From: Spirochaetia bacterium
GTDB lineage: Bacteria; Spirochaetota; Spirochaetia; CADAEX01
Reading direction: 5' to 3'
Assembly (NCBI GenBank): GCA_963662795.1
Contig: OY759746.1
Location: 2,240,001 to 2,304,000 of the forward strand
Length of the DNA stretch: 64,000 nt
Below the pieces are notes generated by a model. It saw only the letters and a list, made by a program, of their open reading frames with translations, made no database searches and was not told the origin of the DNA. The position numbers and the translations under genes were made by a program. Shown here one piece after another: positions 3,735-23,924 of the stretch (positions are counted from its first letter, which is position 1; each line of letters begins with the position of its first letter).

Positions 3735-4281
3735 AATCCACAGGAAAAGCCTGCTTCAGACAGAAGTTGGCGGGAAAATCGAAAACCCTGTTGTGAATAT
3801 TTATTATAATTACGGAGCCTGAAATGATTATTAAGATAATTGAGCTGATTAAGGAAAACCTGTGACTGATATTATTTACTCCATGGGGTATACCGCTCGG
3901 ATATTTCCGGAGTAAATTCCGGAAGATAGTGTATAAAACAGACAGCTGGATGATAAATATCAAGCCCTGTTTTATAAAAGAGACTAAAGCGCTTTTTGTT
4001 ACCCTGTCCCCTGATGATGAAGACTATATAAGGATAAGGAATTTTTACAGGATTTATCTCACGGTTTATTTACTGCTGTTTCTCTCCTGGTATTTTCTTG
4101 CCTGATAATAACTGATAAAGTGGGAAGCATCCCTGCCGCTGCTCTTGAGTATTATGGTGGTAGAATATAATATTTCACCGTTGGAATAATTACCATTAAT
4201 AGATTTATCGTGATGGAAATTCCTGGAAAATTCTGGTATATCTCATACGAATTAATCTGATTTTTTATGTGGAGGGGCGTT

Positions 4282-5118
4282 TTGAAGTTTGTCTCAGGAA
4301 TTAAATGCAGTGACAGGAATGATCGCGGGCTCTGGTTTATTTTCAGCAGGAATAAAATGCTTTATGCAAAGGATGGGGAGAAGATAACCGTACCTCAGCT
4401 TTTATCGCCCTCGGAACTGGGACTGAAAACAACGCCCCCGGTATATTTCGGACAGGCTGACGGGGTAAGCTGCTGGACCGCTGAGCTGCTTGATACAGAT
4501 GATAACATCGCTGACTGCAGCGGCTGTCCTGAAAATACTGATTTTAAAAATCTGCGCGAGCTTTATCCACTGCTTGGAGATGAAATATTCTCTCTCGCAG
4601 GACGGGCCCTTCAATTGAACAACTGGAATATAAGCTGGCAGTACTGCCCCTCCTGCGGCGGCCCGCTTGATAATTCCAAAGAAGAAAGGGCAAAAGTCTG
4701 CGGCAAATGTTCAAAACCGTATTATCCTGTAATATCGCCGGCTATAATCGTAGCAGTTTCAAAAGACGACAGAATCCTTCTTGCAAGAAATCTTAGACAT
4801 GTAAGTTTTAAAAGGTTCAGCATACTTGCCGGTTTTGTCGAGCCGGGCGAATCGCTTGAGGAAACAGTAGCGCGGGAAGTTGAGGAAGAAGTTAACATTA
4901 AGGTAAAAAACATTAAATACTACGCAAGCCAGAGCTGGCCCTTTCCCCATTCACTGATGCTGGGATTCACTGCTGACTATGATTCAGGCGAGATCAGGGC
5001 TGACGGAATCGAGATAGGCGAGGCTGACTGGTTCAGGGCTGACAATCTTCCTGAAATACCGCCCCACGGGAGCATCAGCAGAATACTTATAGACAATTTT
5101 GTCAAAAATAATTCCTGA
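4282..5118 (+). CDS. nudC: NADH pyrophosphatase
   Basis: Zn ribbon CPSCG...CGKC, Nudix box GFVEPGESLEETVAREVEEE, SQSWPFPHSLM signature; TTG start after GGAGG. Confidence 0.93.
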   Translation: MKFVSGIKCSDRNDRGLWFIFSRNKMLYAKDGEKITVPQLLSPSELGLKTTPPVYFGQADGVSCWTAELLDTDDNIADCSGCPENTDFKNLRELYPLLGDEIFSLAGRALQLNNWNISWQYCPSCGGPLDNSKEERAKVCGKCSKPYYPVISPAIIVAVSKDDRILLARNLRHVSFKRFSILAGFVEPGESLEETVAREVEEEVNIKVKNIKYYASQSWPFPHSLMLGFTADYDSGEIRADGIEIGEADWFRADNLPEIPPHGSISRILIDNFVKNNS

Positions 5119-5173
5119 CTCCGCACTTGAGCGGTATCGGAACGGCAGCGCGGAAAAAGCGGAGGTTTTGTCT

Positions 5174-6520
5174 GTGGAAATGGATGATATTATTGATGAC
5201 GGCAGGAAATATCTTTTTTACCCCTGGAAAAAACAGGATTCGGCATCACCTCCTGTAATTGAGAAAGCCGAAGGCTGCTGTTTTTGGGACAGGGACGGAA
5301 AAACATATCTTGACATGTCTTCCCAGCTTGTCAACATGAACCTGGGCCATGGAAACAGGGAAATAATTGACGCGATAAAAACCCAGGCAGAAAAACTGGC
5401 CTTTATGGCACCCCAGTATCCCCTTGATGTCAGATCTCATCTCGCAAAAATAATAATCGAGGAAATTGCCCCTGATAACATGGGTAAGGTTTTTTTCACG
5501 CTTGGAGGCAGCGACGCCAATGAGCATGCCTTAAGAATCGCAAGGGCTTTTACAGGGAAGCACAAGGTATTAAGCAGGTACAGATCCTATCACGGAGCGA
5601 CCGCAGGCTCTGCCAACTTAAGCGGCGAACCGAGAAGATTTCCGTCGGAACCGGGAATGCCGGGTTTTGTCAAATTCTTTGATCCGTATCTGTACCGTGA
5701 AACGATTGACTTTAAAAGCGAAAAGGAAGCCTCGCAGTATTACCTTGCTAAACTTGAAGAGCAGATACTCTATGAGGGGCCTGATCAGATTGCTGCAGTT
5801 TTTATTGAAACAATTACCGGCACAAACGGTGTTATAATCCCTCCTGACGGATATCTTGAAGGACTACGCGATATCTGCACCAGATACGGTATACTTTTAA
5901 TCTGTGATGAGGTAATGACAGGCTGGGGAAGGACGGGGGAGTGGTTCGCGTTCATGCACTGGAAAATAAAGCCTGATATCATCACCTTCGCGAAAGGGAT
6001 CACATGCGGATATGTACCTCTCGGCGGCGTTATTGTCAGCAGGGAAATCAGCTCCTATTTTGATGAAATTAATTTTGTAGGAGGGCTTACATACAGTGCC
6101 CATCCAATCGGATGCGCGGCCGGAATTGCTGCGATAGGCGCCTACAGAAAATATAATGTATTTGCAAATGTCAGAAACATGGAAAAAGTGCTGATCCGGG
6201 AACTTGAAGCCCTTAAGCAGAAACATGAATGTCTCGGTGATGTAAGGGTAAAAGGGCTCTTCGGCATGATTGAGCTTGTAAAGGACAAGAAAACAAAAGA
6301 GCCGCTTGTCCCTTTCAATTCCGACCCGCAGGGGATAATGGGAAAAATAATCTCAAGGCTTTTAAATGAAGGCTTTGCCACATACAGCCACGAGAACATG
6401 ATCTCTGTCTCTCCCCCCCTGATAATAACTGAAGAAGAAATAATTGAAGCCTGCGGGATACTCGATAGAGTGCTTACCTGGGTAGACAGTGAGTACTGCA
6501 GGAGAGATGGAATTGTATAA
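5174..6520 (+). CDS. Class III PLP aminotransferase, taurine/beta-alanine:2-oxoglutarate transaminase (Toa/PydD)-like
   Basis: SSQLVN, YRSYHG, PYLYR, EGP..IAA, DEVMTGWGRTG, ITFAKG (PLP Lys), GGLTYSAHP; GGAGG RBS at 5161 favours GTG 5174 or ATG 5180. Confidence 0.8.
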   Translation: MEMDDIIDDGRKYLFYPWKKQDSASPPVIEKAEGCCFWDRDGKTYLDMSSQLVNMNLGHGNREIIDAIKTQAEKLAFMAPQYPLDVRSHLAKIIIEEIAPDNMGKVFFTLGGSDANEHALRIARAFTGKHKVLSRYRSYHGATAGSANLSGEPRRFPSEPGMPGFVKFFDPYLYRETIDFKSEKEASQYYLAKLEEQILYEGPDQIAAVFIETITGTNGVIIPPDGYLEGLRDICTRYGILLICDEVMTGWGRTGEWFAFMHWKIKPDIITFAKGITCGYVPLGGVIVSREISSYFDEINFVGGLTYSAHPIGCAAGIAAIGAYRKYNVFANVRNMEKVLIRELEALKQKHECLGDVRVKGLFGMIELVKDKKTKEPLVPFNSDPQGIMGKIISRLLNEGFATYSHENMISVSPPLIITEEEIIEACGILDRVLTWVDSEYCRRDGIV

Positions 6521-7226
6521 AAATCATAACCTCGGTTGACATATCTGATAAAATATTAACCGGGGTGTATTATGGATCCTTACCAGAAAAGAATAGTGAA
6601 TAAAAAAATCAAAGTCATTGAACATGACCAAAAAACAGAAAACGTTTCTTTAACCTGCAGATACTTTGGAATATCAAGACAAACCTTTTATGAATGAAAA
6701 AGAGCTTATGAAGAAATTGGAGAAGCTGCTTTTGTAAATAAAAGCCAGGTTTTCCATCAGGCAGCAGTCCTCTCCAGACAGCTCCACCAATTGCCCTAAA
6801 AAATCATTTATTTAAGAAAAAAATATCATTTTGGAGCTGTGAGAATTTCATGGTATCTAAAACGCTATCATAGAATAAAAATCAGTTCAGGAGGTGTTTA
6901 TTACACCTTAAAACGAAATGGACTTAATCTCCTGCCAAAAAACCTGAGAAAACGTTCTATTCCGTCGTTTCAAAGATATGAGAAGCTTACTTCCGGGTCA
7001 TCATGTTCAGGTTGACGTTAAATTCTTATTCTTTTATGATGAAAATGGCAAAAGAATCAAGCGTTTCCAGTATACTGCAATTGATGATTCGACCAGAGTA
7101 AGGGCTTTAAAAATATACAAGCGACATACTCAGGAAAATGCGGTTGATTTTATAAATTACATTATTTCGTCATTTTCTTTTAGAATCCATACTATCCGAA
7201 CTGACAATGGTCATGACCCACACATT
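6514..7226 (+). mobile_element. IS481-family insertion sequence remnant (transposase pseudogene)
   Basis: TGT end, ATG 6572 HTH (CRYFGISRQTFYE*K) with stop at 6695, frameshifts, rve core PGHHVQVDVKF..QYTAIDDSTR..IRTDNG truncated at about 7216. Confidence 0.85.
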
Positions 7227-8060
7227 TTACACAATGTAAAGTTTAATACCTTTTTCCTTGAAAATATTTTGAAACTCAGAAGATATCTTTGAATCAGTAA
7301 TTATAATATCAAATTCATCTATATCAGCAAAATATACATTTTGTACATTACCAAATTTTGATGAATCTACCAATAATATTTTTGTATGAGATGAAGCAAT
7401 AATTGCTTTTTTAATATTTACAACATAAGGATTTGAGCATGTTACACCTAGCTGTTCGCTCACTCCGCCAGCTGCGAAAAATGCCTTATTAAATCGATTT
7501 TTGCGTAAAAGATTAATACTTTCTTCACATTCAAACACAAGAGTTTCTTCATGAAAATATCCTCCAGGGAAAATAATATCACAACCTTTTTTCATCTGAA
7601 TATTTACAAGTACATAGAATGCATGACATCCCACAATAAGATTTTTATTTTCAGGAATATTTCTTGATAGATACTCCATTGTTGAACCTGAATCAATATA
7701 GATATTATCACCTTCTTCAATTAACTCTATTGCTTTATTAACTATACGTATTTTTTCATCAACATTTCGATGTATTTCTGTTGGGAGATCATAGGTAACT
7801 TCATTTTTCTGATAAGTCTGCTGTTTATCACAATATTTATTGTACATAACGACTCCATTGATAACTGTAACAATATTTCTTTCATTCAATAACATTACAT
7901 CTCTATAAATAGTCATTTTAGTTACACCACAAAATTTAGCTAACTCATTTATAGTTATTATTTTATCTTTTTTTAGTTTAAATATTATTCTATTAAGCCG
8001 TAATGTTTTTTTGTTAGTATCCCCAATGTTTTCATTATTTCTATGGTTAGTTTCTATCAT
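7227..8060 (-). CDS. DeoR/GlpR-family transcriptional regulator
   Basis: HTH ELAKFCGVTKMTIYRD, DSGST, DSSKFG, IITDS. Confidence 0.92.
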   Translation of the reverse strand: MIETNHRNNENIGDTNKKTLRLNRIIFKLKKDKIITINELAKFCGVTKMTIYRDVMLLNERNIVTVINGVVMYNKYCDKQQTYQKNEVTYDLPTEIHRNVDEKIRIVNKAIELIEEGDNIYIDSGSTMEYLSRNIPENKNLIVGCHAFYVLVNIQMKKGCDIIFPGGYFHEETLVFECEESINLLRKNRFNKAFFAAGGVSEQLGVTCSNPYVVNIKKAIIASSHTKILLVDSSKFGNVQNVYFADIDEFDIIITDSKISSEFQNIFKEKGIKLYIV

Positions 8061-8175
8061 TTATAATATTACCTCAAAAAATAAATAAAAATATTAATGC
8101 TAAATATATTTATACATTAGAAAATAAAAAAGTAAACTGGTTTTTTTATAAAATGTTAATTTATTAAAAAAAAAT

Positions 8176-8204
8176 TTGACAGTTATAACAATCAATGATA
8201 AAAT
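8176..8204 (+). promoter_or_regulatory. Sigma70 promoter of the tct cassette
   Basis: TTGACA-17 nt-TAAAAT with extended TGn, followed by a TAGGAGG RBS. Confidence 0.75.
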
Positions 8205-8243
8205 AATAACAATTAACTGTTATGGTTTTTTAGGAGGTATTAG

Positions 8244-9203
8244 ATGAAAAGAATAATAATGTCAATTGTTATTGTAATCCTGCTTACTCAAACGGCATGG
8301 TCTGCGGGTCAATCAGAAAAAGAATATCCAAGTAAGCCGATTCAGGTCGTTGTGCCTTATAGTGCTGGAGGCGGAACAGATATATTTGCCCGAACTGTTC
8401 TACGATATACTGATCTCAATGATGATATTGTGGTGAAAAATATTGCTGGTGGCGGTGCTAAACTTGGTACGATGGAGGTCATTAACAGTAAAGCTGATGG
8501 ATACACATTGCTTTCACATGTTATGGCGATCGCAATAGGTTATCATGCTGGACTATATGATACACCTCCATGGGAAAAGTTAGATCCTATTTGTTCGATA
8601 ACAGTTGAAGATAGTGGAATTTCTGTAAAAGCTGATTCACCTTGGAAAACAATAGATGATTTAATCAATTATGCTAAAGAAAATCCTGGGAAATTGAGAT
8701 TGGGGTTTGCTGGTGTAGGTGGAACAACTCATTCAGTTAGTGCGATTTTTGCAATGAAAGCTGGAATTGATGTAAATTTTACGCCATTTAAGGGCGGTGC
8801 AGACTCTCGGGTAGCATTGGCAGGTGGTCATATTGATGCAATTAGTACACAAGTTTCAGAAGTTATTGACTTAGTTGAAGCAGGAGAACTTCGTATGCTT
8901 GTTACTACGGGGTCGAAAAGACACTATCTTGTCCCAAATGTCCCTACTTTAAAAGAAAGTGGAATTGATTTTGTGTTTCAGGTCTGGAGAGGGTTCTTTG
9001 CGCCTAAAGGCACTCCGCAGAATATTTTAAATACCCTTGAAAAATCAATGGAGAATGCAACCAAGAATAAGGAATTTGTGGAAGTAATGAAGAAATTAGG
9101 TTATGAAATCGAATTTAGGGGATCGGAAAAATTCTTGGATGAAATAAAAAGGAATCATGTAGAATTCGCAAAAATAAGTGATATTTTAAAAGGTGAAAAG
9201 TAA
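8244..9203 (+). CDS. tctC: Tripartite tricarboxylate transporter substrate-binding protein
   Basis: YPSKPIQVVVPYSAGGGTD, PFKGGA, LAGGHID, WRGFFAPKGTP; signal peptide. Confidence 0.93.
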   Translation: MKRIIMSIVIVILLTQTAWSAGQSEKEYPSKPIQVVVPYSAGGGTDIFARTVLRYTDLNDDIVVKNIAGGGAKLGTMEVINSKADGYTLLSHVMAIAIGYHAGLYDTPPWEKLDPICSITVEDSGISVKADSPWKTIDDLINYAKENPGKLRLGFAGVGGTTHSVSAIFAMKAGIDVNFTPFKGGADSRVALAGGHIDAISTQVSEVIDLVEAGELRMLVTTGSKRHYLVPNVPTLKESGIDFVFQVWRGFFAPKGTPQNILNTLEKSMENATKNKEFVEVMKKLGYEIEFRGSEKFLDEIKRNHVEFAKISDILKGEK

Positions 9204-9234
9204 GAGGAAAGAATAGTTTCTTCACTAAAATTAA

Positions 9235-9276
9235 GTAAATTGTTCCGGTGTAATTATTATGCTGGAACAATTTTAC
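9235..9276 (+). promoter_or_regulatory. Intergenic stem-loop after tctC (mRNA stabiliser/attenuator)
   Basis: AATTGTTCCGGTGTAAT / ATTATGCTGGAACAATT inverted repeat with G-U pairs. Confidence 0.55.
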
Positions 9277-9294
9277 TTTAAAAGGGTAGGTAAA

Positions 9295-9777
9295 ATGAAT
9301 GCATTGAAATCTGATACAAATATTGGATTTTTTATACTATTGGTAAGTATATTATTTTTCGCAGGTAGTTTTTCCATTAAGCAAAGCACTTTTTCTGCAC
9401 CCATGGCTACTGCAACTTTTTTCCCGAGAGTTGTCAGTATACTATTGGCTATTTCCAGTATCAACCTGATTATTAAAGACTATTTGAAAAAAAAGAAATC
9501 AAAAGGTCGGGTACAATCCAAAAAAATGAACGGGAGTAGTGAGAAATATGTACAGTACATGATCGGTGCAACAGCTATCTATATTTTATTGATACCAATC
9601 ATTGGGTATTTAATTTCTACAATTATTTATATGATCAGCAGCTGCTTATTTTTAGGCGCGGCATTTATTAAAAAACGATGGGTAACTATTTTAATTGCAA
9701 TTTCGATTAGTGTTTTTTCCTATTTGTTATTTACGAAGATTCTTATAGTTTTATTACCAAGCGGGGTTTTTATCTAA
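9295..9777 (+). CDS. tctB: TTT small membrane subunit
   Basis: Four to five TM segments, FFPR motif, LPSG end; lies between tctC and tctA. Confidence 0.88.
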   Translation: MNALKSDTNIGFFILLVSILFFAGSFSIKQSTFSAPMATATFFPRVVSILLAISSINLIIKDYLKKKKSKGRVQSKKMNGSSEKYVQYMIGATAIYILLIPIIGYLISTIIYMISSCLFLGAAFIKKRWVTILIAISISVFSYLLFTKILIVLLPSGVFI

Positions 9778-9796
9778 TGGAAGAGGATGGTTAGAG

Positions 9797-11296
9797 ATGT
9801 TATTTTTTGAAACATTAAAATATGGAATTGAACATGTATTCACTTTTTATACTTTATTATTAATAGGTGGCGGAGTTTTATTTGGAATAATTTTTGGAGC
9901 AATTCCTGGATTGACGGCGACTCTGGCAGTTGCACTTTTATTGCCATTTACATATGGATTGGGACCTTTCAAGGGGCTATCACTTCTCCTTGGTATTTAT
10001 GTTGGAGCCATATCTGGAGGCTTGATTTCTGCTACTCTATTAAGTATTCCAGGGACTCCATCTTCAATAGTGACGACCTTTGATGCCTACCCAATGGCAA
10101 AAAAAGGAAAACCTTTGGAAGCATTGTCTATAGGTGTTTTTTCTTCATTAGTTGGCGGGATTTTCAGTGCTATTATTCTTACGGTTATTGCCCCGCAATT
10201 AGCAAAAATTGCCCTGAAATTTGGTCCTACAGAATATTTCTCACTGGGAATATTCGGGATAACTGTTGTAGCAAGTTTGTGTGCAAAAAATCTAAATAAA
10301 GGGATAATTGCAACATTACTAGGAATGCTTATAGCTACTGTTGGTATGGATCCGGTTACTGCTCGTCCCCGCTTTACTATGGGTTTTTTACAACTGGAGG
10401 GTGGATTTTCTTCACTTGCAACAATGTTAGGATTCTATGCTGCTGCACAAATATTTATCGATACAAAAAATATGGATATTGAACAGGAAGTTATTAAAAT
10501 TAACAATAAAAGCAATATCTTTTTTATGCCATTCAAATTAGTAAGTAAGCAGAAGATGAATTTATTACGTTCTGCAATAATTGGGACATTTATTGGCATT
10601 TTACCCGGAGCCGGAGGGAGTACTGCTGGTTTTTTAGCTTATGATCAGGCAAAAAAAGCATCAAAAGAAATAGAAAAATTTGGGACAGGGTATATTGATG
10701 GAATTGTTGCCTCTGAAACTGCTAACAATGCAGTTACCGGAGGGGCACTAATTCCGTTAATGACTCTTGGTATCCCGGGAGATGTTGTAACAGCAATTTT
10801 ATTGGGTGGTCTTATGATCCATGGATTAAGACCAGGTCCCCTATTGTTTAGAGACAATGCAGATGTGGTCGGTACAATCTTTGTTGCTCTTTTTGTATCA
10901 AATCTTTTTATGTATGTGATTGAAGCTGGTCTTATGAGAAGATTGACGAAGATAATTCAAATCCCCAAACATATTCTTATGCCAACCATAATGATAATGT
11001 GTGTAATTGGTGTATATTCCCTGAATAACAGGATATTTGATATGTGGGTTCTTTTAGTCTTTGGAATTTTTGGATATATTCTTGTTAAAAATGATATATC
11101 CCCAGCACCACTGGTTTTAGGGTACATTCTTACTGATATCATTGAGAGAAATTGGCGAGTTTCTGTAATGTCTTCGAAAGGAGATTTGATGCCTTTTATT
11201 ACTAGTCCAATATCATTATTATTATTAATTTTATCCTTAATTTCAATTTTATACCCATTTATTTCAGGCAAACTATCTATAAATCAAAAAAAATAA
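9797..11296 (+). CDS. tctA: TTT large membrane subunit
   Basis: GAIPGL, IPGTP, ETANNA, TLGIPGD, GLRPGP motifs. Confidence 0.95.
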   Translation: MLFFETLKYGIEHVFTFYTLLLIGGGVLFGIIFGAIPGLTATLAVALLLPFTYGLGPFKGLSLLLGIYVGAISGGLISATLLSIPGTPSSIVTTFDAYPMAKKGKPLEALSIGVFSSLVGGIFSAIILTVIAPQLAKIALKFGPTEYFSLGIFGITVVASLCAKNLNKGIIATLLGMLIATVGMDPVTARPRFTMGFLQLEGGFSSLATMLGFYAAAQIFIDTKNMDIEQEVIKINNKSNIFFMPFKLVSKQKMNLLRSAIIGTFIGILPGAGGSTAGFLAYDQAKKASKEIEKFGTGYIDGIVASETANNAVTGGALIPLMTLGIPGDVVTAILLGGLMIHGLRPGPLLFRDNADVVGTIFVALFVSNLFMYVIEAGLMRRLTKIIQIPKHILMPTIMIMCVIGVYSLNNRIFDMWVLLVFGIFGYILVKNDISPAPLVLGYILTDIIERNWRVSVMSSKGDLMPFITSPISLLLLILSLISILYPFISGKLSINQKK

Positions 11297-11318
11297 ATTG
11301 TTTAAGGATTAGATTATA

Positions 11319-12098
11319 ATGATTAAAACTACGAAAAAAGATTTATTTGATATTCATTCAAAAAATGCAGTAGTTGTCGGTGGTGCTAGCGGTATTGGTA
11401 AGGCTATTTCTTATGCCTATGCTGAATTTGGTGCCAATGTATCAATAGTAGACATTAATTATGATGCTGCATTAAAAGTTGCTGAAGAAATAAATAAAAC
11501 ATTTAACAGTTTTGCAAAAGCTTATAAATCTAATGTTTCAGATAAGCAGCAGGTTTTCGAAAGTATAAATAACATAAAAAAAGATTTTGGCTCAATTGAT
11601 ATTTTTGTGTACAGTGCGGGAATTAATTTCAGAGAATATGTTGTTGATATCATAGAGAAAAACTGGGACAGCATTATAACTGTAAATCTGAAAGGAGCAT
11701 TTCTTTACGGCCAGGCTGTTGGAATGGAAATGATCAAAACAGGAGGAGGTAAGATAATAAATATTGCCTCTGTTTCTTCTCATCTTGGTCATCCTAAAAG
11801 GGGAGCATATGCTGCAAGCAAGGGTGGTTTAATACAGCTGACTAAAGTTATGGCTAATGAGTGGGCTAAATACAATATTAATGTTAATGCAATTTCCCCT
11901 GTAGCTGTATTAACACCTTTGGTTAAAGATCTGGTTGATACTGAAGATAAGATGAAAGAATTAACTAAAAACATCCCTATGGGGAGAATTGCAGAACCTG
12001 ATGATATCGTTGGAACAGCAATATACTTGTCTTCAAAAGCTTCAAATTTTGTTACTGGAGTAAACATCTTTGTTGATGGCGGAAGAATAATTGATTGA
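11319..12098 (+). CDS. Short-chain dehydrogenase/reductase (gluconate-5-dehydrogenase-like)
   Basis: GGASGIG, acidic residue in VDIN (NAD preference), YAASK, NVNAI, VDGG. Confidence 0.88.
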   Translation: MIKTTKKDLFDIHSKNAVVVGGASGIGKAISYAYAEFGANVSIVDINYDAALKVAEEINKTFNSFAKAYKSNVSDKQQVFESINNIKKDFGSIDIFVYSAGINFREYVVDIIEKNWDSIITVNLKGAFLYGQAVGMEMIKTGGGKIINIASVSSHLGHPKRGAYAASKGGLIQLTKVMANEWAKYNINVNAISPVAVLTPLVKDLVDTEDKMKELTKNIPMGRIAEPDDIVGTAIYLSSKASNFVTGVNIFVDGGRIID

Positions 12099-12128
12099 TT
12101 TTACTAAAATTATTAAGGAGTTTTGATC

Positions 12129-13790: not shown

Positions 13791-13813
13791 CTGAGTAATT
13801 GGAGGGGGGTATT

Positions 13814-14596
13814 ATGTTACTTAAGAATGATGTTGCAATAGTTACAGGTGGTGCAAAAGAAATTGGGCAAAAAATTGCTTTTGGCTTGGCAAAAGAAGGG
13901 GCTAAAGTTGTAGTTGTAGATATTGATGATGAAGAAGGGAAAAAGACTGTAGATATTATTAAAAAGGAATATAGAACTGAAGCTTTGTCTTTCAGTATTG
14001 ATGTCTGCAATGATAATCAGGTAAATGATATGGTGAAAAAGGTAATAAACGAATTTGGAGAAATTACCATTTTAATTAATAATGCAGGAATAATGGGGCC
14101 GGTTGACAATATTGAAAATATTTCTGAAGAGGATTGGGATAAGACAATGTCTGTTAATTTAAAAGGAGTGTTTCTTTGTTCTAAATATGTAATTCCATAT
14201 ATGAAAAAAAAGAAAAATGGCAACATTGTAAACATTGCCTCAATATCCGGTAAAAGAGCTCTTCCGCTCCGAACACCATATACTACCACCAAAATGGGAG
14301 TGATTGGACTTACCAGAACTTTAGCTGCTGAAGTTGGATCTTCCGGTATTAGGGTAAATTCAATTTGTCCTGGCTCTGTTCTTGGTAATCGTCAGAAGTA
14401 TGTTTTTGAAGGGATTATGAAGGCGACAGGAAAAAGCTGGGACCAGGTAAAAAAGGAGAAGGCTGAAGTAACAGCTTTAAAAACTTTTGTCGATCCTGAA
14501 TATATTGCAAATACAGTCGTATTTTTATGTTCAAAACAATCCTGGGTTATAACCGGACAGGATATAAATGTCTGCGGTGGAGCGATTATGTATTGA
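13814..14596 (+). CDS. Short-chain dehydrogenase/reductase
   Basis: TGGAKEIG, NNAG, YTTTK, RVNSICPG, ITGQ. Confidence 0.88.
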   Translation: MLLKNDVAIVTGGAKEIGQKIAFGLAKEGAKVVVVDIDDEEGKKTVDIIKKEYRTEALSFSIDVCNDNQVNDMVKKVINEFGEITILINNAGIMGPVDNIENISEEDWDKTMSVNLKGVFLCSKYVIPYMKKKKNGNIVNIASISGKRALPLRTPYTTTKMGVIGLTRTLAAEVGSSGIRVNSICPGSVLGNRQKYVFEGIMKATGKSWDQVKKEKAEVTALKTFVDPEYIANTVVFLCSKQSWVITGQDINVCGGAIMY

Positions 14597-14727
14597 AATG
14601 AACTTTTTGCTTTTTTGCAATAGTATCATGATTATTAGTTGAGATATGTAAGCGTAATTCTAAAATACGTCCCCCTTGACTTTGATTATATTGTATCAAT
14701 TTTAAAATAATTATATGGAGGAAAATA

Positions 14728-16107
14728 ATGGAAGCGAAAGAAATGGTAGCTGCTCTGATAAAAAGAGGGAGGGCGGCGCAGAAGATAGCGGACGGATACA
14801 GCCAGGAAAAGGTTGATGAACTTGTAAAGGCGATATCATGGGCTATAGTAAAGAAGGAAAACTCGGAAAAAATAGCGCGCCTTGCGGTGGATGAATCGCA
14901 GCTCGGACACTATGAAGGAAAATACGGAAAGCTGCAAAAGAAAATCCGCGGTGTAGTTCGTGATGTGGCCGGAGTAAAATCTGTAGGTATAATTGAGCGT
15001 GATGAGAAAAAAGGACTCCTTAAAATAGCAAAACCTGTTGGAGTAATAGGGGCGCTTGTCCCCTGCACAAATCCTGAGGCGACCCCTGTAATCAAGGCGA
15101 TAAACTCGATCAAGGGAAGAAACGCAATCATCTTCGCGCCGCACCCGAGGACAAAGAAAACCAATACCCTTATAGTAAACATTATGAGGGACGCGCTTAA
15201 AAGACACGGAGCGCCGGAAGACCTTATAATCGGAATAGAAGAGCCTTCGATGGACGCAAGCGGAGAGCTTATGGCCCAGTGCGACCTTGTTGTTGCAACA
15301 GGCGGGGCAGGGATGGTAAAAGCTGCATATTCATCAGGAACTCCTGCATACGGAGTAGGTGCCGGAAATGTTGTAGTTGTAGTTGATGAGACAGCAGACT
15401 TTAAAGACAGCGCAAAGAAGATAATGCTGAGCAAGACATTTGATCTTGCAACCAGCTGCAGCGCGGACAATAATATCGTTCTTGTCGATGAGGTTTATGA
15501 AAAAATGCTTGATGAGCTTAAGGCAGTGGGCGGGTACATGTGCTCATCCGATGAGAAGGCAAAGCTTCAGAAGGTAGTCTTTCCAGATAATCATCTCGGA
15601 CGGGACCATGTCGCACAGAGTGCACAGAAGATAGCATCCCTTGCGGGGTTTAAAATACCTGAAGGTGTAACCTTCATCCTTGTTGAGGAAGACGGTGTAG
15701 GGGCAAGCCATCCGTTCAGCGGAGAGAAGATGAGCGTAATCGCAGCTGTTCATAAAGTAGCTGATTTTAAGGCCGCGATTGATAAGGTAAACGAGATAAC
15801 ATCCTATCAGGGCGCGGGGCACTCCTGTGGACTTTACTCAAATGATATGAAGCGGATAGAAGAGTACGGTCTTAAAACAAAGACAAGCCGCGTAATGATA
15901 AGGCAGCCGCAGGTGTTCGGGAACAGCGGAAACTGGGACAACGGTCTTCCATTTACCCTTACCTTGGGATGCGGGACATGGGGAGGCAACATCTCAAGCG
16001 AGAACATCACCTGGAAGCATTTTATCAACATAACATGGCTTTCGATGCCTATCCCTGAGGTAATACCCAGAGATGAGGACCTCTTCGGCGATATCATGAA
16101 GGAATAG
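14728..16107 (+). CDS. CoA-acylating aldehyde dehydrogenase, SauS (sulfoacetaldehyde dehydrogenase)-like
   Basis: KPVGVIGALVPCTNP, ATGGAGMV, GVGAGN, FDLATSCS (catalytic Cys), GEKMS, GHSCG, DNGLPFTLTLGCGTWGGN..SEN. Confidence 0.8.
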   Translation: MEAKEMVAALIKRGRAAQKIADGYSQEKVDELVKAISWAIVKKENSEKIARLAVDESQLGHYEGKYGKLQKKIRGVVRDVAGVKSVGIIERDEKKGLLKIAKPVGVIGALVPCTNPEATPVIKAINSIKGRNAIIFAPHPRTKKTNTLIVNIMRDALKRHGAPEDLIIGIEEPSMDASGELMAQCDLVVATGGAGMVKAAYSSGTPAYGVGAGNVVVVVDETADFKDSAKKIMLSKTFDLATSCSADNNIVLVDEVYEKMLDELKAVGGYMCSSDEKAKLQKVVFPDNHLGRDHVAQSAQKIASLAGFKIPEGVTFILVEEDGVGASHPFSGEKMSVIAAVHKVADFKAAIDKVNEITSYQGAGHSCGLYSNDMKRIEEYGLKTKTSRVMIRQPQVFGNSGNWDNGLPFTLTLGCGTWGGNISSENITWKHFINITWLSMPIPEVIPRDEDLFGDIMKE

Positions 16108-16661
16108 ATTATTTAATATTAGGATTCAGAAACGATTGTAAATATTTTATATTTCTAACACTTTAAAAATGGAATAGAGGTTTGTATTTAATTGGACTAA
16201 CCACTAGGCTAAATTGCAGAGGAATTAAAATTTATTTCTGTGATGACAAATTATAATAATAATTTTTAATTTTCAAAACTGAGAATAGCGGTCTTATGAG
16301 TAGGCCTGCGAACAATGAAGTAAATATCATCTTCTTTATACTATTGATTATGAGCTGATTATTTTTGAGCTTTGAAAGAGGAAGAATATCAGAAATACTG
16401 ATCTATACTTTATATAGAATTTTATCAGTGATCTTGTAAGTGATTAGATTATAAGGCAAGAATGAAAAATATTTACAGATAATACAATGACTACATTGTT
16501 TTGCATATCTAAAAGTTATCCAATTTATGATAAAAATTATTTAGTATTATACATTTTGTGATTTTAATGGATAAAACATTTGTGTATAATTGCCCTATAT
16601 ACCGTAAAAATTCAGGTAAAAACCTGTAAAATAGAATGGTTATGCCTAACAGGAGGTCCAG

Positions 16662-18212
16662 GTGGGTAACAAGGAAGCAATGCTGCGTTTTAGAGAGATG
16701 CAGGCTAAAGCATTTGCCGGAGGCGGTGAAGCGAGAGTCGCCTCCCAGCATGAAAAAGGAAAACAGACAGCGCGGGAAAGAATAAATCTTCTCGTAGAAG
16801 AGGGATCTTTTATTGAAGATGGAACATATATTACGGGACGGGCGGATAATTTCGGTCTTGATAAACTCAAATTCCCCGGAGACGGTGTTGTAACCGGCAG
16901 CGGTAAAATCAATGATAAACAGGTTTTCCTGTCGTCACAGGATTTTACAGTTCTCGGAGGATCGCTCGGCGAAATGCATGCGGAGAGGATTGCCTCTGCA
17001 CAGGAGCTTGCGCTTAAAAACGGAACTCCGTTTATCCAGATAAATGACTCCGGCGGAGCAAGAATCCAGGAAGGGATACTCTCTCTCGGCGGATACGGAA
17101 AAATATTCAGGAATAATACAATTTCATCCGGGGTTATTCCCCAGATTTCTGTAATACTCGGCCCCTGTGCCGGAGGAGCTGTTTACTCCCCTGCCATTAC
17201 TGATTTTGTTTTTATGGTAGACGGCATAAGCAACATGTATATTACAGGTCCGGATGTCATCAAGGCGGTAACAGGGGAAGAAATATCCCATGAAGCGCTT
17301 GGCGGAGCTTCTGCCCATTGTGTTAAAAGCGGTGTAGCTCATTTCATGTATAAAACAGAGGAAGACTGTCTTGAGGGCGTAAGAAAGCTTTTAAGCTATC
17401 TTCCGTCAAACAATATGGAAAAACCTCCCTTTGTGCCGTCAGGCGATTCTCCTGACAGGGACACATCAGCCCTTAATGATATCATACCTGAAGAGTCAAA
17501 TAAGTCGTATGACATGAAAGACTGCATTAACGAAGTTTTTGACGAGGGAAGTTTTTTTGAGGTTCATGCCGAATATGCGAAAAGCGTTGTAGTCGGTTTC
17601 GCAAGGCTAAACGGCAGGACAGTAGGTGTATTCGGTAACCAGCCGAAGGTTTTTGCCGCCTCGCTTGATATAAACTCATCAGATAAAGGGGCAAGGTTTG
17701 TAAGGTTCTGCGATTCATTCAATATCCCTATTATAACCTTTGTGGATGTTCCGGGATTTCTTCCTGGTATTGCGCAGGAGCACGGCGGTATAATAAGACA
17801 CGGAGCCAAGATTCTTTACGCGATAGCGGAAGCCACTGTTCCAAAGATCGCGCTTATCATAAGAAAATCATACGGCGGGGCATTTATAGCAATGTCGGCC
17901 AAGCAGCTCGGGTATGACAGGTCAATAGCGTTTCCGTCAGCTGAAATTGCTGTCATGGGAGCTGAAGGGGCGGCGAATGTCATCTTCAGAAAAGAAATCA
18001 ATGCATCAGACGATCCCGCTGCCAAAAGGGCGGAAAAAATTGATGAATTCCGTGAGCAGTTCATGAATCCTTTTGTCGCGGCCGGTTACGGATATGTTGA
18101 TGATGTAATTGACCCGAAGAACACAAGAATTGAGCTTATAAGGTCTCTTGAGATGCATTCAAGGAAAAGGGAAGAGAGGCCGGCCAAGAAGCACGGCAAT
18201 ATTCCTCTGTAG
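16662..18212 (+). CDS. mmdA: (Methyl)malonyl-CoA decarboxylase carboxyltransferase alpha subunit
   Basis: QDFTVLGGSLG, DSGGARIQEG, GPCAGGAVYSPA, DVPGFLPG, KKHGNIPL; followed by delta, biotin and beta subunits. Confidence 0.88.
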   Translation: MGNKEAMLRFREMQAKAFAGGGEARVASQHEKGKQTARERINLLVEEGSFIEDGTYITGRADNFGLDKLKFPGDGVVTGSGKINDKQVFLSSQDFTVLGGSLGEMHAERIASAQELALKNGTPFIQINDSGGARIQEGILSLGGYGKIFRNNTISSGVIPQISVILGPCAGGAVYSPAITDFVFMVDGISNMYITGPDVIKAVTGEEISHEALGGASAHCVKSGVAHFMYKTEEDCLEGVRKLLSYLPSNNMEKPPFVPSGDSPDRDTSALNDIIPEESNKSYDMKDCINEVFDEGSFFEVHAEYAKSVVVGFARLNGRTVGVFGNQPKVFAASLDINSSDKGARFVRFCDSFNIPIITFVDVPGFLPGIAQEHGGIIRHGAKILYAIAEATVPKIALIIRKSYGGAFIAMSAKQLGYDRSIAFPSAEIAVMGAEGAANVIFRKEINASDDPAAKRAEKIDEFREQFMNPFVAAGYGYVDDVIDPKNTRIELIRSLEMHSRKREERPAKKHGNIPL

Positions 18213-18231
18213 AAAGAGGGGAGAGGTGATA

Positions 18232-18597
18232 ATGGATATACAGGCGTACAGTTATACAGTTTTATCAAGTATTATCGGGATGGGAATCGTCTTCGCGTTT
18301 TTGGGTTTCCTTTCTCTGCTGATGGTTTTCATAAAGAGGGTTTTTGACAGTCCCGCTTCACCGGCAAACGCTGTAAAAACAAAACCTGCAGATGCCGTGG
18401 CGAACGCTAACGAGGCAGGCAGGGGATCTGAAAACAGCGCAGAGGATAATATGTGGATAATTGCCGCTGTTGCCGCATTCCTTGAAGACGAGGATATGCC
18501 TAAAAGCGCAATGGCATGGCAGCCGGCCGAAAGCGAAAAACATGACCCATGGGTTTCTGTGCCGGGTGTTCAGAGACAACCGTCAAGAGTATTTTAA
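18232..18597 (+). CDS. mmdD: Na+-translocating decarboxylase delta/OadG-type subunit
   Basis: GMGIVFAFL TM, Ala/Pro linker, IIAAVAA; GAGGTG RBS before ATG 18232. Confidence 0.8.
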   Translation: MDIQAYSYTVLSSIIGMGIVFAFLGFLSLLMVFIKRVFDSPASPANAVKTKPADAVANANEAGRGSENSAEDNMWIIAAVAAFLEDEDMPKSAMAWQPAESEKHDPWVSVPGVQRQPSRVF

Positions 18598-18672
18598 TAT
18601 ACGGATGACAAACTGAAATTACTTATGGTTTAAGACCTAAAGCAAAGTCCACAGGATTAACGGAGAATTGAT

Positions 18673-19110
18673 ATGAAAAAGAATATAAAATTTGAACTGG
18701 CTGGAAAAAAATACAGCGTTGATGTTGAGAGAGAAGGTGATTCTCTTATTATTGAAAATGAAGGGAAGAGTGTGACGGTAAATCTGCTTGAGGGGGAGAA
18801 AAAAGCGGCAAGACCTAAACCCCGGCCGGTTTCTGCTCCTGCCGTATCAGCAGCACCCGCACCAACAGCTGCTCCAGCTGCCGCTGTGTCTGCAGGCGCA
18901 GGAGATATAGTTGCTCCGATGACAGGAACAATAAAGGAAATAAAGGTTTCCAGGGGTGATAAAGTAAGTGCAGATCAGCTTGTTGTAATAATGGAAGCAA
19001 TGAAAATGGATATTGAAGTGTTTTCACATATATCCGGAACAGTTTCTGATATCTATCTGGCGCCGGGAAGCAGCGTCAAGGAAAATCAGCCTGTTGTTAA
19101 ACTGGCTTAG
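18673..19110 (+). CDS. mmdC: Biotin carrier subunit
   Basis: Ala/Pro linker, APMTG, EAMKM biotinylation site. Confidence 0.9.
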   Translation: MKKNIKFELAGKKYSVDVEREGDSLIIENEGKSVTVNLLEGEKKAARPKPRPVSAPAVSAAPAPTAAPAAAVSAGAGDIVAPMTGTIKEIKVSRGDKVSADQLVVIMEAMKMDIEVFSHISGTVSDIYLAPGSSVKENQPVVKLA

Positions 19111-19121
19111 GGGGGGAATAA

Positions 19122-20237
19122 ATGGGACTTTTACATCTGTTTCAGGAATTCCTTAACAGCACAAGTTTTTCAGTTATAACCTGGAAAGATTATGTGATGA
19201 TAGGTGTCGGATGTGTTTTGCTTTATCTGGCAATTGTCAAAGGCTATGAACCGCTTCTTCTTATTCCGATCGGATTTGGAGCCGTACTTGTCAACATCCC
19301 TCTCGCCGGAATGCTTGATGAGGGGGGGCTGTTAAAATATTTCTACTTCGGGATTGAAGCAGGGATATTTCCCCCGCTTATCTTTATGGGTATAGGTGCA
19401 ATGACCGATTTCGGCCCGCTTCTTGCCAAACCGCAGACGTTTCTTCTCGGGGCCGCTGCCCAGTTCGGGATTTTCGGCACTCTTCTTGGAGCCAAAGCGC
19501 TTGGATTTGATTTCGCGGAATCAGCTTCAATCGCGATTATCGGAGGAGCGGACGGTCCGACAGCAATTTATCTTACATCAAAACTTGCTCCCCATCTTCT
19601 CGGGCCTATAGCTGTTGCCGCATACTCGTATATGGCTCTGGTTCCTTTTATCCAGCCTCCGATAATTAAAGCGCTCACTTCCAAAAATGACAGGAAGATT
19701 GTGATGTCCGAGGTCAGGGAAGTATCAAAAAAGGTAAAGATTATATTTCCGATAGTTACCTGTATTATCGCGTCGCTTGTAATACCGGCGGCAACCCCTC
19801 TTTTAGGTATGCTGATGGTAGGAAACCTTTTCAGGGAATGCGGTGTTGTTGAGAGGCTTTCAAAAACTGCCCAGAATGAACTTATAAACATAGTTACAAT
19901 TTTTCTTGGCCTTTCTGTAGGTTCGAAGATGTCTGCTGAATATTTTCTTACAGCAAAAACACTTATGATTATCGGTCTTGGACTTATCGCATTTTCAGTA
20001 GGAACTGCCTCAGGTGTCCTTCTTGGACAGTTGATGAAAGTCTTTTCCGGCGGCAAAATAAATCCGATGATAGGGGCCGCCGGTGTCTCTGCTGTGCCGA
20101 TGGCTGCGAGAGTAGTTCAGAAAGTAGGGCAGCAGGCAAACCCCAAAAATTTTCTCCTTATGAATGCAATGGGGCCCAATGTCGCAGGAGTTATCGGATC
20201 TGCCGTTGCGGCCGGCGTACTTTTGTCCTTGGCGTGA
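19122..20237 (+). CDS. mmdB: Na+-translocating decarboxylase beta subunit
   Basis: [45 protein letters not shown]. Confidence 0.95.
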
Positions 20238-20266
20238 TCCTCACTTTTTTTCAATATTTTCACTTT

Positions 20267-20303
20267 TTTCCTGCTGTCTCCCTATAAGGGGGACGGCAGG
20301 AAA
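20267..20303 (+). terminator. Stem-loop terminator after the mmd operon
   Basis: TTTCCTGCTGTCTCCC ... GGGGGACGGCAGGAAA hairpin. Confidence 0.65.
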
Positions 20304-22848: not shown

Positions 22849-22858
22849 GTATTAATTA

Positions 22859-23920: not shown

Positions 23921-23924
23921 AAAT

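Follow-up and report, generated by a model that had tools for sequence, protein, structure and literature searches.

Gene neighbourhoods in many bacteria suggest a probable route from malonate semialdehyde to acetyl-CoA through a Na+-pumping decarboxylase

Do an omega-aminotransferase, a CoA-acylating aldehyde dehydrogenase and the four genes of a Na+-translocating decarboxylase, which lie on one strand of a 64,000-nucleotide stretch of a Spirochaetia genome (the window; its genome is referred to as G000), belong to a single pathway? The preliminary description had proposed that they convert an amine via (methyl)malonate semialdehyde and (methyl)malonyl-CoA into acyl-CoA and CO2 while a Na+ gradient is built. 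All six genes were confirmed, and gene neighbourhoods in many bacteria suggest that the three enzymes probably save energy while turning malonate semialdehyde into acetyl-CoA, the semialdehyde coming from inositol, pyrimidines or beta-alanine.

Gene content and a recent insert

The region comprises the following features:

4267..5118, + strand: NudC, NAD+ diphosphatase (NF001299, 267.7 bits, cut-off 158)
5174..6520, + strand: class-III omega-aminotransferase of the Toa/PydD type (PF00202, E 6e-89; NCBIfam PRK06062, 548.7 bits, cut-off 472)
6490..16501, no strand: 10-kb insert, missing from a near-identical strain
6516..6696, no strand: short dispersed repeat, left end of the insert (85-87% identical copies at genome positions 642391 and 1260204)
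6978..7292, + strand: IS481-family transposase remnant (NF033577, 54.4 bits, cut-off 224)
7227..8060, - strand: DeoR-family regulator of the cassette (DeoRC and HTH_DeoR domains)
8244-9203, + strand: tctC (Pfam TctC, above cut-off)
9259-9777, + strand: tctB (Pfam TctB, above cut-off)
9797-11296, + strand: tctA (Pfam TctA, above cut-off)
11319-12098, + strand: SDR (domain match)
12123-13790, + strand: acetolactate-synthase-like TPP enzyme (domain match)
13799-14596, + strand: SDR (domain match)
14728..16107, + strand: CoA-acylating aldehyde dehydrogenase (best NCBIfam model SauS, 554.8 bits, cut-off 600)
16662..18212, + strand: MmdA-like carboxyltransferase (PF01039, 636.5 bits; TIGR01117, 772.7 bits, below the cut-off of 998.8)
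18232..18597, + strand (ORF 18148-18597): OAD_gamma-type small membrane subunit, MmdD-like (PF04277, 47 bits, cut-off 27)
18673..19110, + strand: biotin carrier subunit, MmdC-like (PF00364; EAMKM motif; Ala/Pro-rich linker)
19122..20237, + strand: Na+-translocating decarboxylase beta subunit, OAD_beta (TIGR01109, 528.1 bits, cut-off 190.6)
20267..20303, + strand: terminator-like hairpin (stem of 17 pairs, then a T-rich tail), closing the mmd operon

The aminotransferase starts with GTG, preceded by GGAGG; the MmdD-like subunit probably starts near 18232, at the Met of MDIQAY. MmdA is the sole protein of its kind in the genome besides a single-chain carboxylase of 1852 residues. As had been noted before, the aminotransferase, dehydrogenase and mmd genes are co-oriented and of host-like composition, with a GC content of 0.43-0.49 as against 0.28-0.39 in the intervening stretch. 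NudC is a conserved left neighbour that stands outside the pathway: all seven family genomes examined show the order Lsa36-dGTPase-NudC-[aminotransferase]-mmdADCB.

The preliminary description saw only an IS481 remnant and an AT-rich cassette between aminotransferase and dehydrogenase, and took the two genes for neighbours before the cassette arrived; the latter does not hold: the dehydrogenase is itself part of the insert, which consists of the IS481 remnant, DeoR, tctCBA, SDR, TPP enzyme, SDR and dehydrogenase. A 59,972-nt contig (run X4) of the near-identical strain follows positions 3000-6489 of the window with 0 differences and resumes at 16502-21500, with 72 other letters in between; the breaks in synteny with G001 and G002 fall at these two places (~6489 and 16502) as well. 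In these three genomes the aminotransferase lies directly upstream of mmdA, and in G007 and G009 within 3.5 kb of it, whereas the dehydrogenase of insert-free relatives is found elsewhere, at the end of an inositol operon. The insert is thus recent and the juxtaposition in the window an accident of insertion; the dehydrogenase as a resident neighbour of the aminotransferase is ruled out. The inserted DNA also encodes residues 439-448 of the aminotransferase, synteny with its kin stopping at ~6489.

An IS-associated event would have placed a foreign carboxylate-catabolic cassette, together with a third copy of the dehydrogenase, between aminotransferase and mmdA. The IS481 remnant, the sole copy in the genome, matches only model positions 127-198 of 284. 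The genes tctCBA encode a tripartite carboxylate transporter; of the promoter-like sites in this region, the best is at 8176-8204. No named NCBIfam model is matched above its cut-off by the TPP enzyme, whose homologs bear only generic names; among 400 further genomes from the phylum, 2 contain relatives of it, in both cases without the cassette. Probably, the pathway of the cassette also ends in an aldehyde that the dehydrogenase handles. Terminator-like matches within 14596-16662 are weak (3 G-C pairs) and are either on the other strand or internal to the dehydrogenase gene.

Conserved neighbourhoods of the dehydrogenase and the aminotransferase

The dehydrogenase is one of three copies in G000 that are 97-99% identical and close three operons, namely the iol operon, a split-transketolase operon and the tct cassette. 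In all five kin examined, which span two genera, the sole ortholog is likewise the last gene of an inositol operon (LacI-iolB-iolD-iolE-iolG), the place where IolA normally sits. Among 79 related loci from several phyla, the dehydrogenase is accompanied by inositol genes in 16, by reductive-pyrimidine genes in 7, by the aminotransferase in 11 and by mmd genes in 15 (these in Spirochaetota and Bacillota); altogether, 57 show an inositol, pyrimidine, aminotransferase, mmd, valine or transketolase context. Aerobic Proteobacteria and Verrucomicrobia contribute 20 loci in which the family heads the valine operon ACAD-ECH-HIBCH-HIBDH in place of MmsA, and four of five genomes with such an operon have no MmsA above cut-off.

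MmsA/IolA itself was not found in G000. Its model TIGR01722 does not match the window dehydrogenase at all, stays below cut-off in G000 and exceeds it in only two of 41 genomes (G028 and G030), both of which lack the dehydrogenase ortholog and mmdA. Nine genomes carry iolD; MmsA occurs in none of them, and eight combine the dehydrogenase with mmdA.

For the aminotransferase, orthologs of 56-65% identity adjoin the dehydrogenase in pyrimidine-degradation clusters. These clusters also hold PreT/PreA (PreA 576-597 bits, cut-off 335), dihydropyrimidinase (522 bits, cut-off 393), a carbon-nitrogen hydrolase and a uracil permease, and mmd genes are frequently found next to them. The aminotransferase is a probable beta-alanine (or beta-aminoisobutyrate) transaminase. 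The suspected linkage of the three genes recurs in Bacillota and in further families of the class, often with pyrimidine genes. G000 itself was found to contain no close PreT/PreA, dihydropyrimidinase or ureidopropionase and hence no recognisable reductive pyrimidine pathway, for which the preliminary description had recommended a search; it also has no iolC above cut-off, and its iolJ-like aldolase is only 33% identical. Neither source of the semialdehyde is thus fully encoded in recognisable form in G000.

The proposed route and its alternatives

These neighbourhoods make it fairly likely that a Na+-pumping decarboxylase receives malonyl-CoA from a (methyl)malonate-semialdehyde dehydrogenase that does not itself decarboxylate. 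The semialdehyde would be supplied by the aminotransferase from beta-alanine or beta-aminoisobutyrate, or by the inositol operon elsewhere in the genome from inositol. The dehydrogenase would convert malonate semialdehyde, CoA and NAD(P)+ into malonyl-CoA without decarboxylation, and the membrane complex MmdADCB would then decarboxylate malonyl-CoA to acetyl-CoA (or methylmalonyl-CoA to propionyl-CoA) and export Na+. If so, the route conserves energy that the decarboxylating MmsA/IolA throws away. The identities of the genes, the insert, the number of dehydrogenase copies, the recurring neighbourhoods and the lack of the alternative enzymes are observed; we infer the substrates, the retention of the carboxyl group and the pumping of Na+. 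Retention by the dehydrogenase is proposed because it makes sense of the linkage to Mmd. An enzyme-bound malonyl thioester could, by analogy with MmsA, decarboxylate on the dehydrogenase, which counts against the route, as do the score of MmdA below its NCBIfam cut-off and the accidental nature of the juxtaposition in the window. Of the original proposal, the conserved linkage speaks for the route, as does the lack of mutase and epimerase: methylmalonyl-CoA mutase is below cut-off in G000 and all 19 family genomes, the epimerase has no match in any of them, and neither is encoded in the window, as stated before. The missing pyrimidine pathway of G000 speaks against it.

The dehydrogenase may instead be a general module for the last step from aldehydes to acyl-CoA, either by virtue of broad specificity or with IolA-like decarboxylation on the enzyme giving acetyl-CoA, while Mmd serves another purpose, such as linking acetyl-CoA and malonyl-CoA for fatty-acid synthesis or decarboxylating malonyl-CoA from another source. 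The near-identical copies at the ends of three unrelated operons could indeed indicate a broad-specificity enzyme. Furthermore, mmdA is present in 12 of 23 genomes of the class without dehydrogenase ortholog, including G007 and G009, where the aminotransferase lies beside mmd, so that Mmd must also play a different part or draw on a different feeder. In G003, G007 and G009, MmdA is the sole carboxyltransferase-domain protein, and these genomes lack a stand-alone AccC, yet have FabF (above cut-off) and a FabD-like gene. However, all 18 genomes (of 41) with a dehydrogenase ortholog also have mmdA, and dehydrogenase and mmdA are adjacent or co-operonic in many unrelated lineages, lying within 5 kb of each other in 7 of 12 dehydrogenase-bearing genomes outside the family. 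Two clostridial operons even unite iol genes, dehydrogenase and mmdADCB; in locus L078, the order on one strand is LacI-PfkB-dehydrogenase-aldolase II-iolB-iolD-iolE-iolG-mmdA-gamma-BCCP-beta, and L059 is similar. Acetyl-CoA made directly would leave Mmd without substrate in such operons, and a general module thus appears rather unlikely.

The preliminary description had also considered taurine, from which the aminotransferase would form sulfoacetaldehyde and SauS sulfoacetyl-CoA, an ADP-forming CoA ligase then yielding sulfoacetate and ATP, with mmd unrelated. SauS is indeed the best NCBIfam model of the dehydrogenase, the nearest solved structure to the aminotransferase is the taurine:2-oxoglutarate aminotransferase 6jix (E 3.6e-143), and an ADP-forming acyl-CoA synthetase is next to the inositol operon of G000 and that of G001, and a few kb from it in G011. 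The dehydrogenase nevertheless scores under the SauS cut-off, sulfoacetyl-CoA is the wrong type of substrate for the carboxyltransferase, and none of the neighbourhoods examined supports the taurine route: a sulfonate context was seen in 0 of 79 loci with the queries used, which covered Xsc, TauABC and SauT/SauU unsystematically. We regard it as quite improbable.

A very improbable reading places 4-aminobutyrate at the start, with a SucD-type dehydrogenase converting succinate semialdehyde into succinyl-CoA. The nearest solved structure to the dehydrogenase is indeed Clostridium kluyveri SucD (PDB 8cei, E 5.6e-97), with whose Cys242, Lys70 and Ser243 its Cys244, Lys72 and Ser245 align. Lys70 and Ser243 are the carboxylate-binding residues of SucD in the available portion of PMC10249356, and K72 and S245, whose retention also speaks for the favoured route, are conserved in 79 of 79 orthologs, but they also occur in two distant G000 paralogs and are therefore not discriminating. 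Succinyl-CoA has no way to Mmd when mutase and epimerase are lacking, and the inositol, pyrimidine and valine contexts all indicate C3 or C4-branched semialdehydes.

The biosynthetic direction, in which Mmd carboxylates acetyl-CoA using the Na+ gradient, malonyl-CoA is then reduced by the dehydrogenase and the aminotransferase provides beta-alanine destined for pantothenate, is unlikely in the extreme: the enzyme family is reversible, with SucD working reductively in the available portion of PMC10249356, and PanD was found in none of five family genomes, but neither was PanC, so that beta-alanine would have no pantothenate sink, and the neighbours (uracil permease, PreTA, dihydropyrimidinase, iol genes) are catabolic.

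Comparison with known systems

No natural precedent or published description of the favoured route, from malonate semialdehyde via malonyl-CoA to acetyl-CoA, was found in the literature. MmsA/IolA, which we take to be EC 1.2.1.27/1.2.1.18, is CoA-acylating and decarboxylating and is found at the same position of catabolic operons for inositol, valine and beta-alanine/pyrimidine, presumably acting on the same substrates. Within the aldehyde dehydrogenase superfamily, however, it lies on another branch, and it releases CO2 to give acetyl- or propionyl-CoA, whereas the window dehydrogenase is proposed to keep the carboxyl group. The closest named model, SauS (NF047625, acylating sulfoacetaldehyde dehydrogenase), has the same architecture; it converts an anionic X-CH2-CHO aldehyde into its CoA ester with retention of X, and its partner, a Toa-type taurine aminotransferase, is of the same family as that in the window, but the neighbourhoods here are those of carboxylates (inositol, pyrimidine, valine) instead of sulfonates. 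C. kluyveri SucD (succinyl-CoA reductase or acylating succinate-semialdehyde dehydrogenase) shares the catalytic Cys and the Lys and Ser for the distal carboxylate, but uses a C4 substrate, works reductively in fermentation and has no link to biotin decarboxylases.

The methylmalonyl-CoA decarboxylase of Veillonella and Propionigenium consists of the same four subunit types (carboxyltransferase, small membrane subunit, AMKM biotin carrier and OAD_beta). That Na+ pump is fed by succinate via mutase and epimerase, and the Veillonella enzyme takes malonyl-CoA as a poorer substrate. Here, in contrast, mutase and epimerase were not found, the alpha subunit is below the TIGR01117 cut-off and the main substrate is proposed to be malonyl-CoA.

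The gut bacteria Anaerostipes (PMC8355322) and Dysosmobacter (PMC13311982), for which anaerobic fates of 3-oxopropionate have been described, share, in the available text of both sources, the upstream inositol pathway to 3-oxopropionate. In that text, the former relies on a 3-oxoacid CoA transferase, whose product is then reduced to propionate, and for the latter an oxoacid dehydrogenase complex is only proposed; a term search of both main texts returned neither 'malonyl' nor 'decarboxylase'. The same two reactions in the same direction, beta-alanine to malonate semialdehyde to malonyl-CoA, make up a synthetic 'transaminase-malonyl-CoA reductase' route, which, in the available portion of bioRxiv 10.1101/2025.08.03.668335, runs the C-domain of a Chloroflexus-type malonyl-CoA reductase backwards and is called thermodynamically marginal. 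Unlike this engineered route, the one proposed here would employ another enzyme family, and the downstream decarboxylase would pull the reaction.

Gene order of the window and the insert

An ORF listing with Pfam and NCBIfam scans confirmed every gene named in the preliminary description, all of them on the plus strand.

Features of the window (coordinates, strand, feature)
4267-5118, +, NudC
5174-6520, +, class-III aminotransferase; GTG start behind GGAGG; PRK06062/NF004718, 548.7 bits against a cut-off of 472
6978-7292, +, IS481 remnant; NF033577, 54.4 bits
7227-8060, -, DeoR regulator
8244-11296, +, tctC, tctB and tctA
11319-14596, +, SDR, acetolactate-synthase-like TPP enzyme and second SDR
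14728-16107, +, CoA-acylating aldehyde dehydrogenase; best model SauS
16662-20237, +, mmd operon of four genes: carboxyltransferase, OAD_gamma-type subunit, biotin carrier and OAD_beta
20267-20303, 17-pair hairpin closing the mmd operon

The aminotransferase, dehydrogenase and mmd genes have a GC content of 0.43-0.49, as against 0.28-0.39 over most of the stretch separating the aminotransferase from the dehydrogenase. Synteny with two same-genus genomes is lost at ~6490 and regained at ~16495. In a near-identical organism, represented by a sequencing run, a single 59,972-nt contig matches window positions 3000-6489 with 0 differences and resumes at 16502-21500, skipping 10,012 bases and carrying 72 other letters in their place. 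The synteny breaks and the insert-free contig place the IS remnant, the cassette and the dehydrogenase within one insert; the gene order of the window is the outcome of a recent insertion. In the near-identical organism, the aminotransferase lies directly upstream of mmdA, and the dehydrogenase copy is on a different contig. The final ten codons of the aminotransferase (residues 439-448) are encoded by insert DNA, which replaced the original ones. A comparison of the two insert ends showed neither direct nor inverted terminal repeats. The IS481 element is called a remnant because its score comes from a partial match only, spanning positions 127-198 of 284 in NF033577 and falling short of the full-length cut-off of 224 bits. 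Promoter-like sites number 56, against a shuffled expectation of 44.7 +/- 5.3; as this excess is only ~2 standard deviations, operon boundaries are not claimed from promoters.

The cassette (7227-14596) is foreign and AT-rich, and encodes DeoR, a TctCBA transporter and an uncharacterised TPP enzyme flanked by two SDRs. The TPP enzyme reaches no NCBIfam cut-off (243 bits on the Xsc model, cut-off 676). Its homologs, which bear generic names only, occur widely in metagenomes (Desulfobacterales, Syntrophales, Poribacteria), and within the phylum just 2 of the 400 other genomes have a relative, neither in the same cassette; that it might be a 2-oxoacid decarboxylase making a carboxy-aldehyde is a guess. 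Further along the window, a cheD-cheB-cheR-MCP stretch (22209-25792) has a second copy, 99.2% identical, at genome positions 3598452-3602038.

Sequence features of the three enzymes

A PF00171 fold with a catalytic Cys and a His-Ser/Thr pair assigns the dehydrogenase to the CoA-acylating group (PduP/EutE/AdhE-N/SucD), and its nearest structure is Clostridium kluyveri SucD (8cei). C244 and H365-S366 correspond to Cys242 and His364-Thr365 there, and each is invariant in 79 of 79 orthologs. In C. kluyveri SucD the distal carboxylate is held by Lys70 and Ser243 (PMC10249356). The corresponding K72 and S245 are likewise invariant in all 79 orthologs and are also found in two distant paralogs; they thus fit an anionic substrate and do not discriminate further. 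On the SauS equivalog model (NF047625, cut-off 600 bits), the dehydrogenase scores 554.8 bits and the ortholog in the related genome G022 548.3. It is absent from the matches to the MmsA/IolA model (TIGR01722, cut-off 448.5 bits), which no protein of the source genome, G000, reaches; the best match there, 249.4 bits, comes from a different gene. With SauS or acetaldehyde dehydrogenase models giving the closest scores, these proteins could be mis-named in many carrier genomes.

G000 has three dehydrogenase copies with 97.4-98.5% DNA identity, limited to the coding region and ribosome-binding site (window 14704-16116; genome 1627556-1628955 and 1641042-1642442). All three have host-like GC, including the window copy despite the AT-rich insert. 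One of the others ends the operon LacI-iolB-iolD-iolE-iolG (locus L013, 15567-16946), and the second (locus L014, 9064-10443) is the last gene of a cluster under AraC control, after two split transketolases and a Zn-dehydrogenase. A quick IQ-TREE tree, read only for the grouping of these copies and for a well-supported valine-type clade, places the three together beside the same-genus ortholog, indicating recent duplication or gene conversion. Identity of such restricted extent, together with the host-like GC, is consistent with gene conversion between paralogs at operon ends, or with duplication that was very precise. The presence of near-identical copies in three operons suggests that the dehydrogenase may have broad specificity. 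The AraC-controlled cluster (L014 3467-10443, genome ~1635467-1642443), in which each transketolase is encoded as N and C halves, resembles transketolase-type sugar cleavage pathways; the pairing of transketolase and dehydrogenase recurs in loci L053 and L074.

The aminotransferase is of the Toa/PydD type by its NF004718 score, with 298.9 bits on PF00202. Its nearest structure is taurine:2-oxoglutarate aminotransferase (6jix, E 3.6e-143).

The decarboxylase has an integral membrane beta subunit (TIGR01109, 528.1 bits against 190.6; PF03977, 544 bits) and a 145-aa biotin carrier with EAMKM, (A/V)MKM being the biotinylation motif of such carriers. A small gamma/delta anchor was also recognized (PF04277, 47 bits against 27), which on TIGR01195 scores 32.6 bits, just below the cut-off of 36.05. 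MmdA itself reaches 772.7 bits on TIGR01117 (cut-off 998.8) and is, as judged from these profiles, a PccB/MmdA-type carboxyltransferase outside the curated MmdA set. Its Ile409 aligns with position 422 of Streptomyces coelicolor PccB, where Asp is reported to restrict the enzyme to propionyl-CoA and Ile to admit acetyl-CoA; 12S transcarboxylase has Leu there, so that the indication is weak. The second OAD_beta of G000 belongs to a separate system, an oxaloacetate decarboxylase near citrate-lyase accessory genes.

Gene neighbourhoods and the candidate route

The preliminary description had proposed that beta-alanine or beta-aminoisobutyrate is converted via (methyl)malonate semialdehyde to (methyl)malonyl-CoA, which Mmd decarboxylates while pumping Na+. 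This pathway idea is the best-supported reading, and a moderately probable one, with two corrections: the gene order of the window stems from a recent insertion, and the ancestral context of the dehydrogenase in this lineage is inositol. In all five kin examined (G001, G002, G005, G008, G011) the inositol operon ends with the best-matching ortholog (75-96% identical), at the normal position of IolA, the malonate-semialdehyde dehydrogenase. G001 has no further dehydrogenase match, and the other four have only a 43-44% paralog besides. Among 41 genomes of the class, TIGR01722 exceeds its cut-off only in G028 and G030, both devoid of the dehydrogenase ortholog and mmdA; eight of nine genomes with iolD have dehydrogenase and mmdA, and none of the nine has MmsA. 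In the ninth, G036, iolD exceeds its cut-off, and the dehydrogenase ortholog, mmdA and MmsA (over cut-off) were all not found in the whole genome, so this organism may use yet another fate of 3-oxopropionate. A 690-aa ADP-forming acyl-CoA synthetase (L013 7295-9367, minus strand; also loci L015 and L018) is encoded next to the inositol operon of G000 and of G001, and at a distance of a few kb in G011; this synthetase may yield ATP from acetyl-CoA or malonyl-CoA.

A wider scan, with one genome per species, yielded 79 loci whose relatives are 53-96% identical and which were sorted with reference proteins; the context categories overlap and sum to more than 79. Culturable carriers among them include Anaerovirgula multivorans, Marinisporobacter balticus DSM 102940, Pelosinus propionicus DSM 13327 and Ilyobacter polytropus, with Spongiibacter and Zhongshania for the valine type.

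Contexts of the dehydrogenase family gene among 79 loci
Inositol genes, 16
Reductive-pyrimidine genes, 7
Aminotransferase, 11
mmd genes, 15
Transketolase, 2
Valine-type operon, 20
None of these, 22, many on short contigs

The valine-type loci (L081, L087-L089, L091, L092, L096, L097, L100, L101, L105-L112, L114, L115) form one well-supported clade from Proteobacteria (marine Gamma- and Alphaproteobacteria) and Verrucomicrobia. Here the family gene comes first, followed by acyl-CoA dehydrogenase, enoyl-CoA hydratase, 3-hydroxyisobutyryl-CoA hydrolase and 3-hydroxyisobutyrate dehydrogenase, and thus occupies exactly the place of MmsA; MmsA over cut-off is absent from four of the five valine-type genomes checked. 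In a third context, the dehydrogenase-aminotransferase pair stands in pyrimidine-type clusters of G020, G022, G032 and 4 of the 79 loci (L085, L104, L113, L116), which hold some or all of uracil permease, carbon-nitrogen hydrolase and PreT/PreA; those of G020, G022, G032, L085 and L116 are accompanied by mmd. Malonate and methylmalonate semialdehyde are thus the substrates to which all three contexts, each from an independent pathway, point. Between uracil permease and mmdA, pyrimidine-type clusters encode two small conserved proteins without a Pfam or NCBIfam match (L027 8106-8932, L026 7722-8785, L028 7691-8628, and also in L085, L104 and L116).

The argument that the carboxyl group is retained is based on the linkage of the dehydrogenase to the decarboxylase, to which the mmd genes beside the pyrimidine-type clusters also belong. 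mmdA occurs in all 18 of the 41 class genomes that have a dehydrogenase ortholog; 12 of these 18 lie outside the family of 19 genomes, and in seven of the 12 the two genes are within 5 kb of each other (less than 400 bases apart in four). In locus L078 (Vallitaleaceae), a same-strand series with little space between genes runs LacI, PfkB kinase, dehydrogenase, class-II aldolase, iolB, iolD, iolE, iolG, mmdA, gamma, biotin carrier and beta, and L059 resembles it. Within the family, the order Lsa36-dGTPase-NudC-[aminotransferase]-mmdADCB was found in seven of seven genomes examined. The aminotransferase is part of it in four, directly in G001 and G002, at 1.3 kb in G007 and at 3.5 kb in G009; it was not seen at that site in G003, G005 and G011.

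Several observations weaken the route, among them the possible broad specificity of the dehydrogenase noted above. mmdA is also found in 12 of the 23 class genomes without a dehydrogenase ortholog, including G007 and G009. These two have the aminotransferase beside mmd, and their sole dehydrogenase relative, a paralog of 41-43% identity, belongs to a conserved cluster that also holds citrate-synthase-like genes. In G000 itself, PreT/PreA, dihydropyrimidinase and ureidopropionase gave no close match, tblastn with the kin proteins finding only 26-37% identity, most likely to paralogous enzymes; iolC over cut-off was not found there, and an iolJ-like aldolase is only 33% identical. The paralog cluster (L126 5083-12102, genome ~1133083-1140102; L127, L128) is kept in G000, G007 and G009 and comprises citrate synthase, a 298-aa citrate-synthase-like protein, a 354-aa protein without a Pfam match, the paralog, a HAD hydrolase and LysR.

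A role of Mmd in lipid synthesis would explain its occurrence without the dehydrogenase. In G003, G007 and G009, MmdA is the sole carboxyltransferase-domain protein; AccA/AccD and stand-alone AccC were not found, pyruvate carboxylase only, and FabF (over cut-off) and a FabD-like gene are present. G000 and G005 additionally have a single-chain protein of 1852 aa that combines biotin carboxylase, biotin carrier and carboxyltransferase domains (G000 genome 2732671-2738229; L131 1671-7229). In some kin, Mmd may thus also link acetyl-CoA with malonyl-CoA in lipid synthesis. That the module is a two-way malonyl-CoA node, not only a catabolic drain, seems improbable: in G003, G007 and G009, with no acetyl-CoA carboxylase genes of any kind, Mmd would have to make malonyl-CoA for fatty-acid synthesis, reversed on the Na+ gradient or with CO2 taken from another biotin enzyme, or else the acylating dehydrogenase would feed fatty-acid synthesis ATP-free from malonate semialdehyde.

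The taurine route, named as the alternative in the preliminary description, would call on the sulfoacetate/taurine pathway genes SauT, SauU, Xsc and Pta; in a survey of annotations, none was seen among the annotated genes of the window or the annotated loci. Methylmalonyl-CoA mutase and epimerase (PF01642, TIGR03081), which usually supply methylmalonyl-CoA in the succinate-to-propionate pathway, have no match in G000 (98% complete, single contig), another point for retention of the carboxyl group by the dehydrogenase; the mutase cut-off is reached in none of the 19 family genomes, only in G022, G026, G032 and G034, with the same pattern for the epimerase. Beta-alanine synthesis for pantothenate is unlikely, since neither PanC nor PanD turned up in any of five family genomes, and the neighbouring genes are catabolic; the biosynthetic reading was therefore rejected. 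A GABA reading was also rejected, G000 having no mutase.

Significance and comparison with known systems

If true, the malonyl-CoA route would fill a gap, the fate of 3-oxopropionate being unsettled in anaerobes that degrade inositol, pyrimidines or beta-alanine. It would also add a case of energy conservation in which decarboxylation drives Na+ export: the activated carboxyl group, lost with the usual enzyme, would here be retained as a CoA ester and then spent on Na+ pumping. Marine bacteria with valine operons would make methylmalonyl-CoA directly and spare the ATP of propionyl-CoA carboxylase. For engineering, where an ATP-free malonyl-CoA route is now being built with a poorly suited reductase, a natural family working in the oxidative direction would be useful.

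In the literature searched, subscription journals and supplements lying outside the search, no description was found of a natural path that leads from malonate semialdehyde via malonyl-CoA to a pump of the Mmd type. The available portion of a 2025 aldehyde dehydrogenase review discusses malonyl-CoA only for reductive archaeal and Chloroflexus enzymes, and a 2025 preprint presents beta-alanine to semialdehyde to malonyl-CoA as an engineered, non-canonical route (bioRxiv 10.1101/2025.08.03.668335). Anaerostipes is described as passing 3-oxopropionate through a CoA transferase to propionate (PMC8355322), and for Dysosmobacter, a gut inositol fermenter reported in 2026, an oxoacid dehydrogenase complex is only proposed for the 3-oxopropionate step (PMC13311982); a term search for 'malonyl' gave no hit in the main text of either paper.
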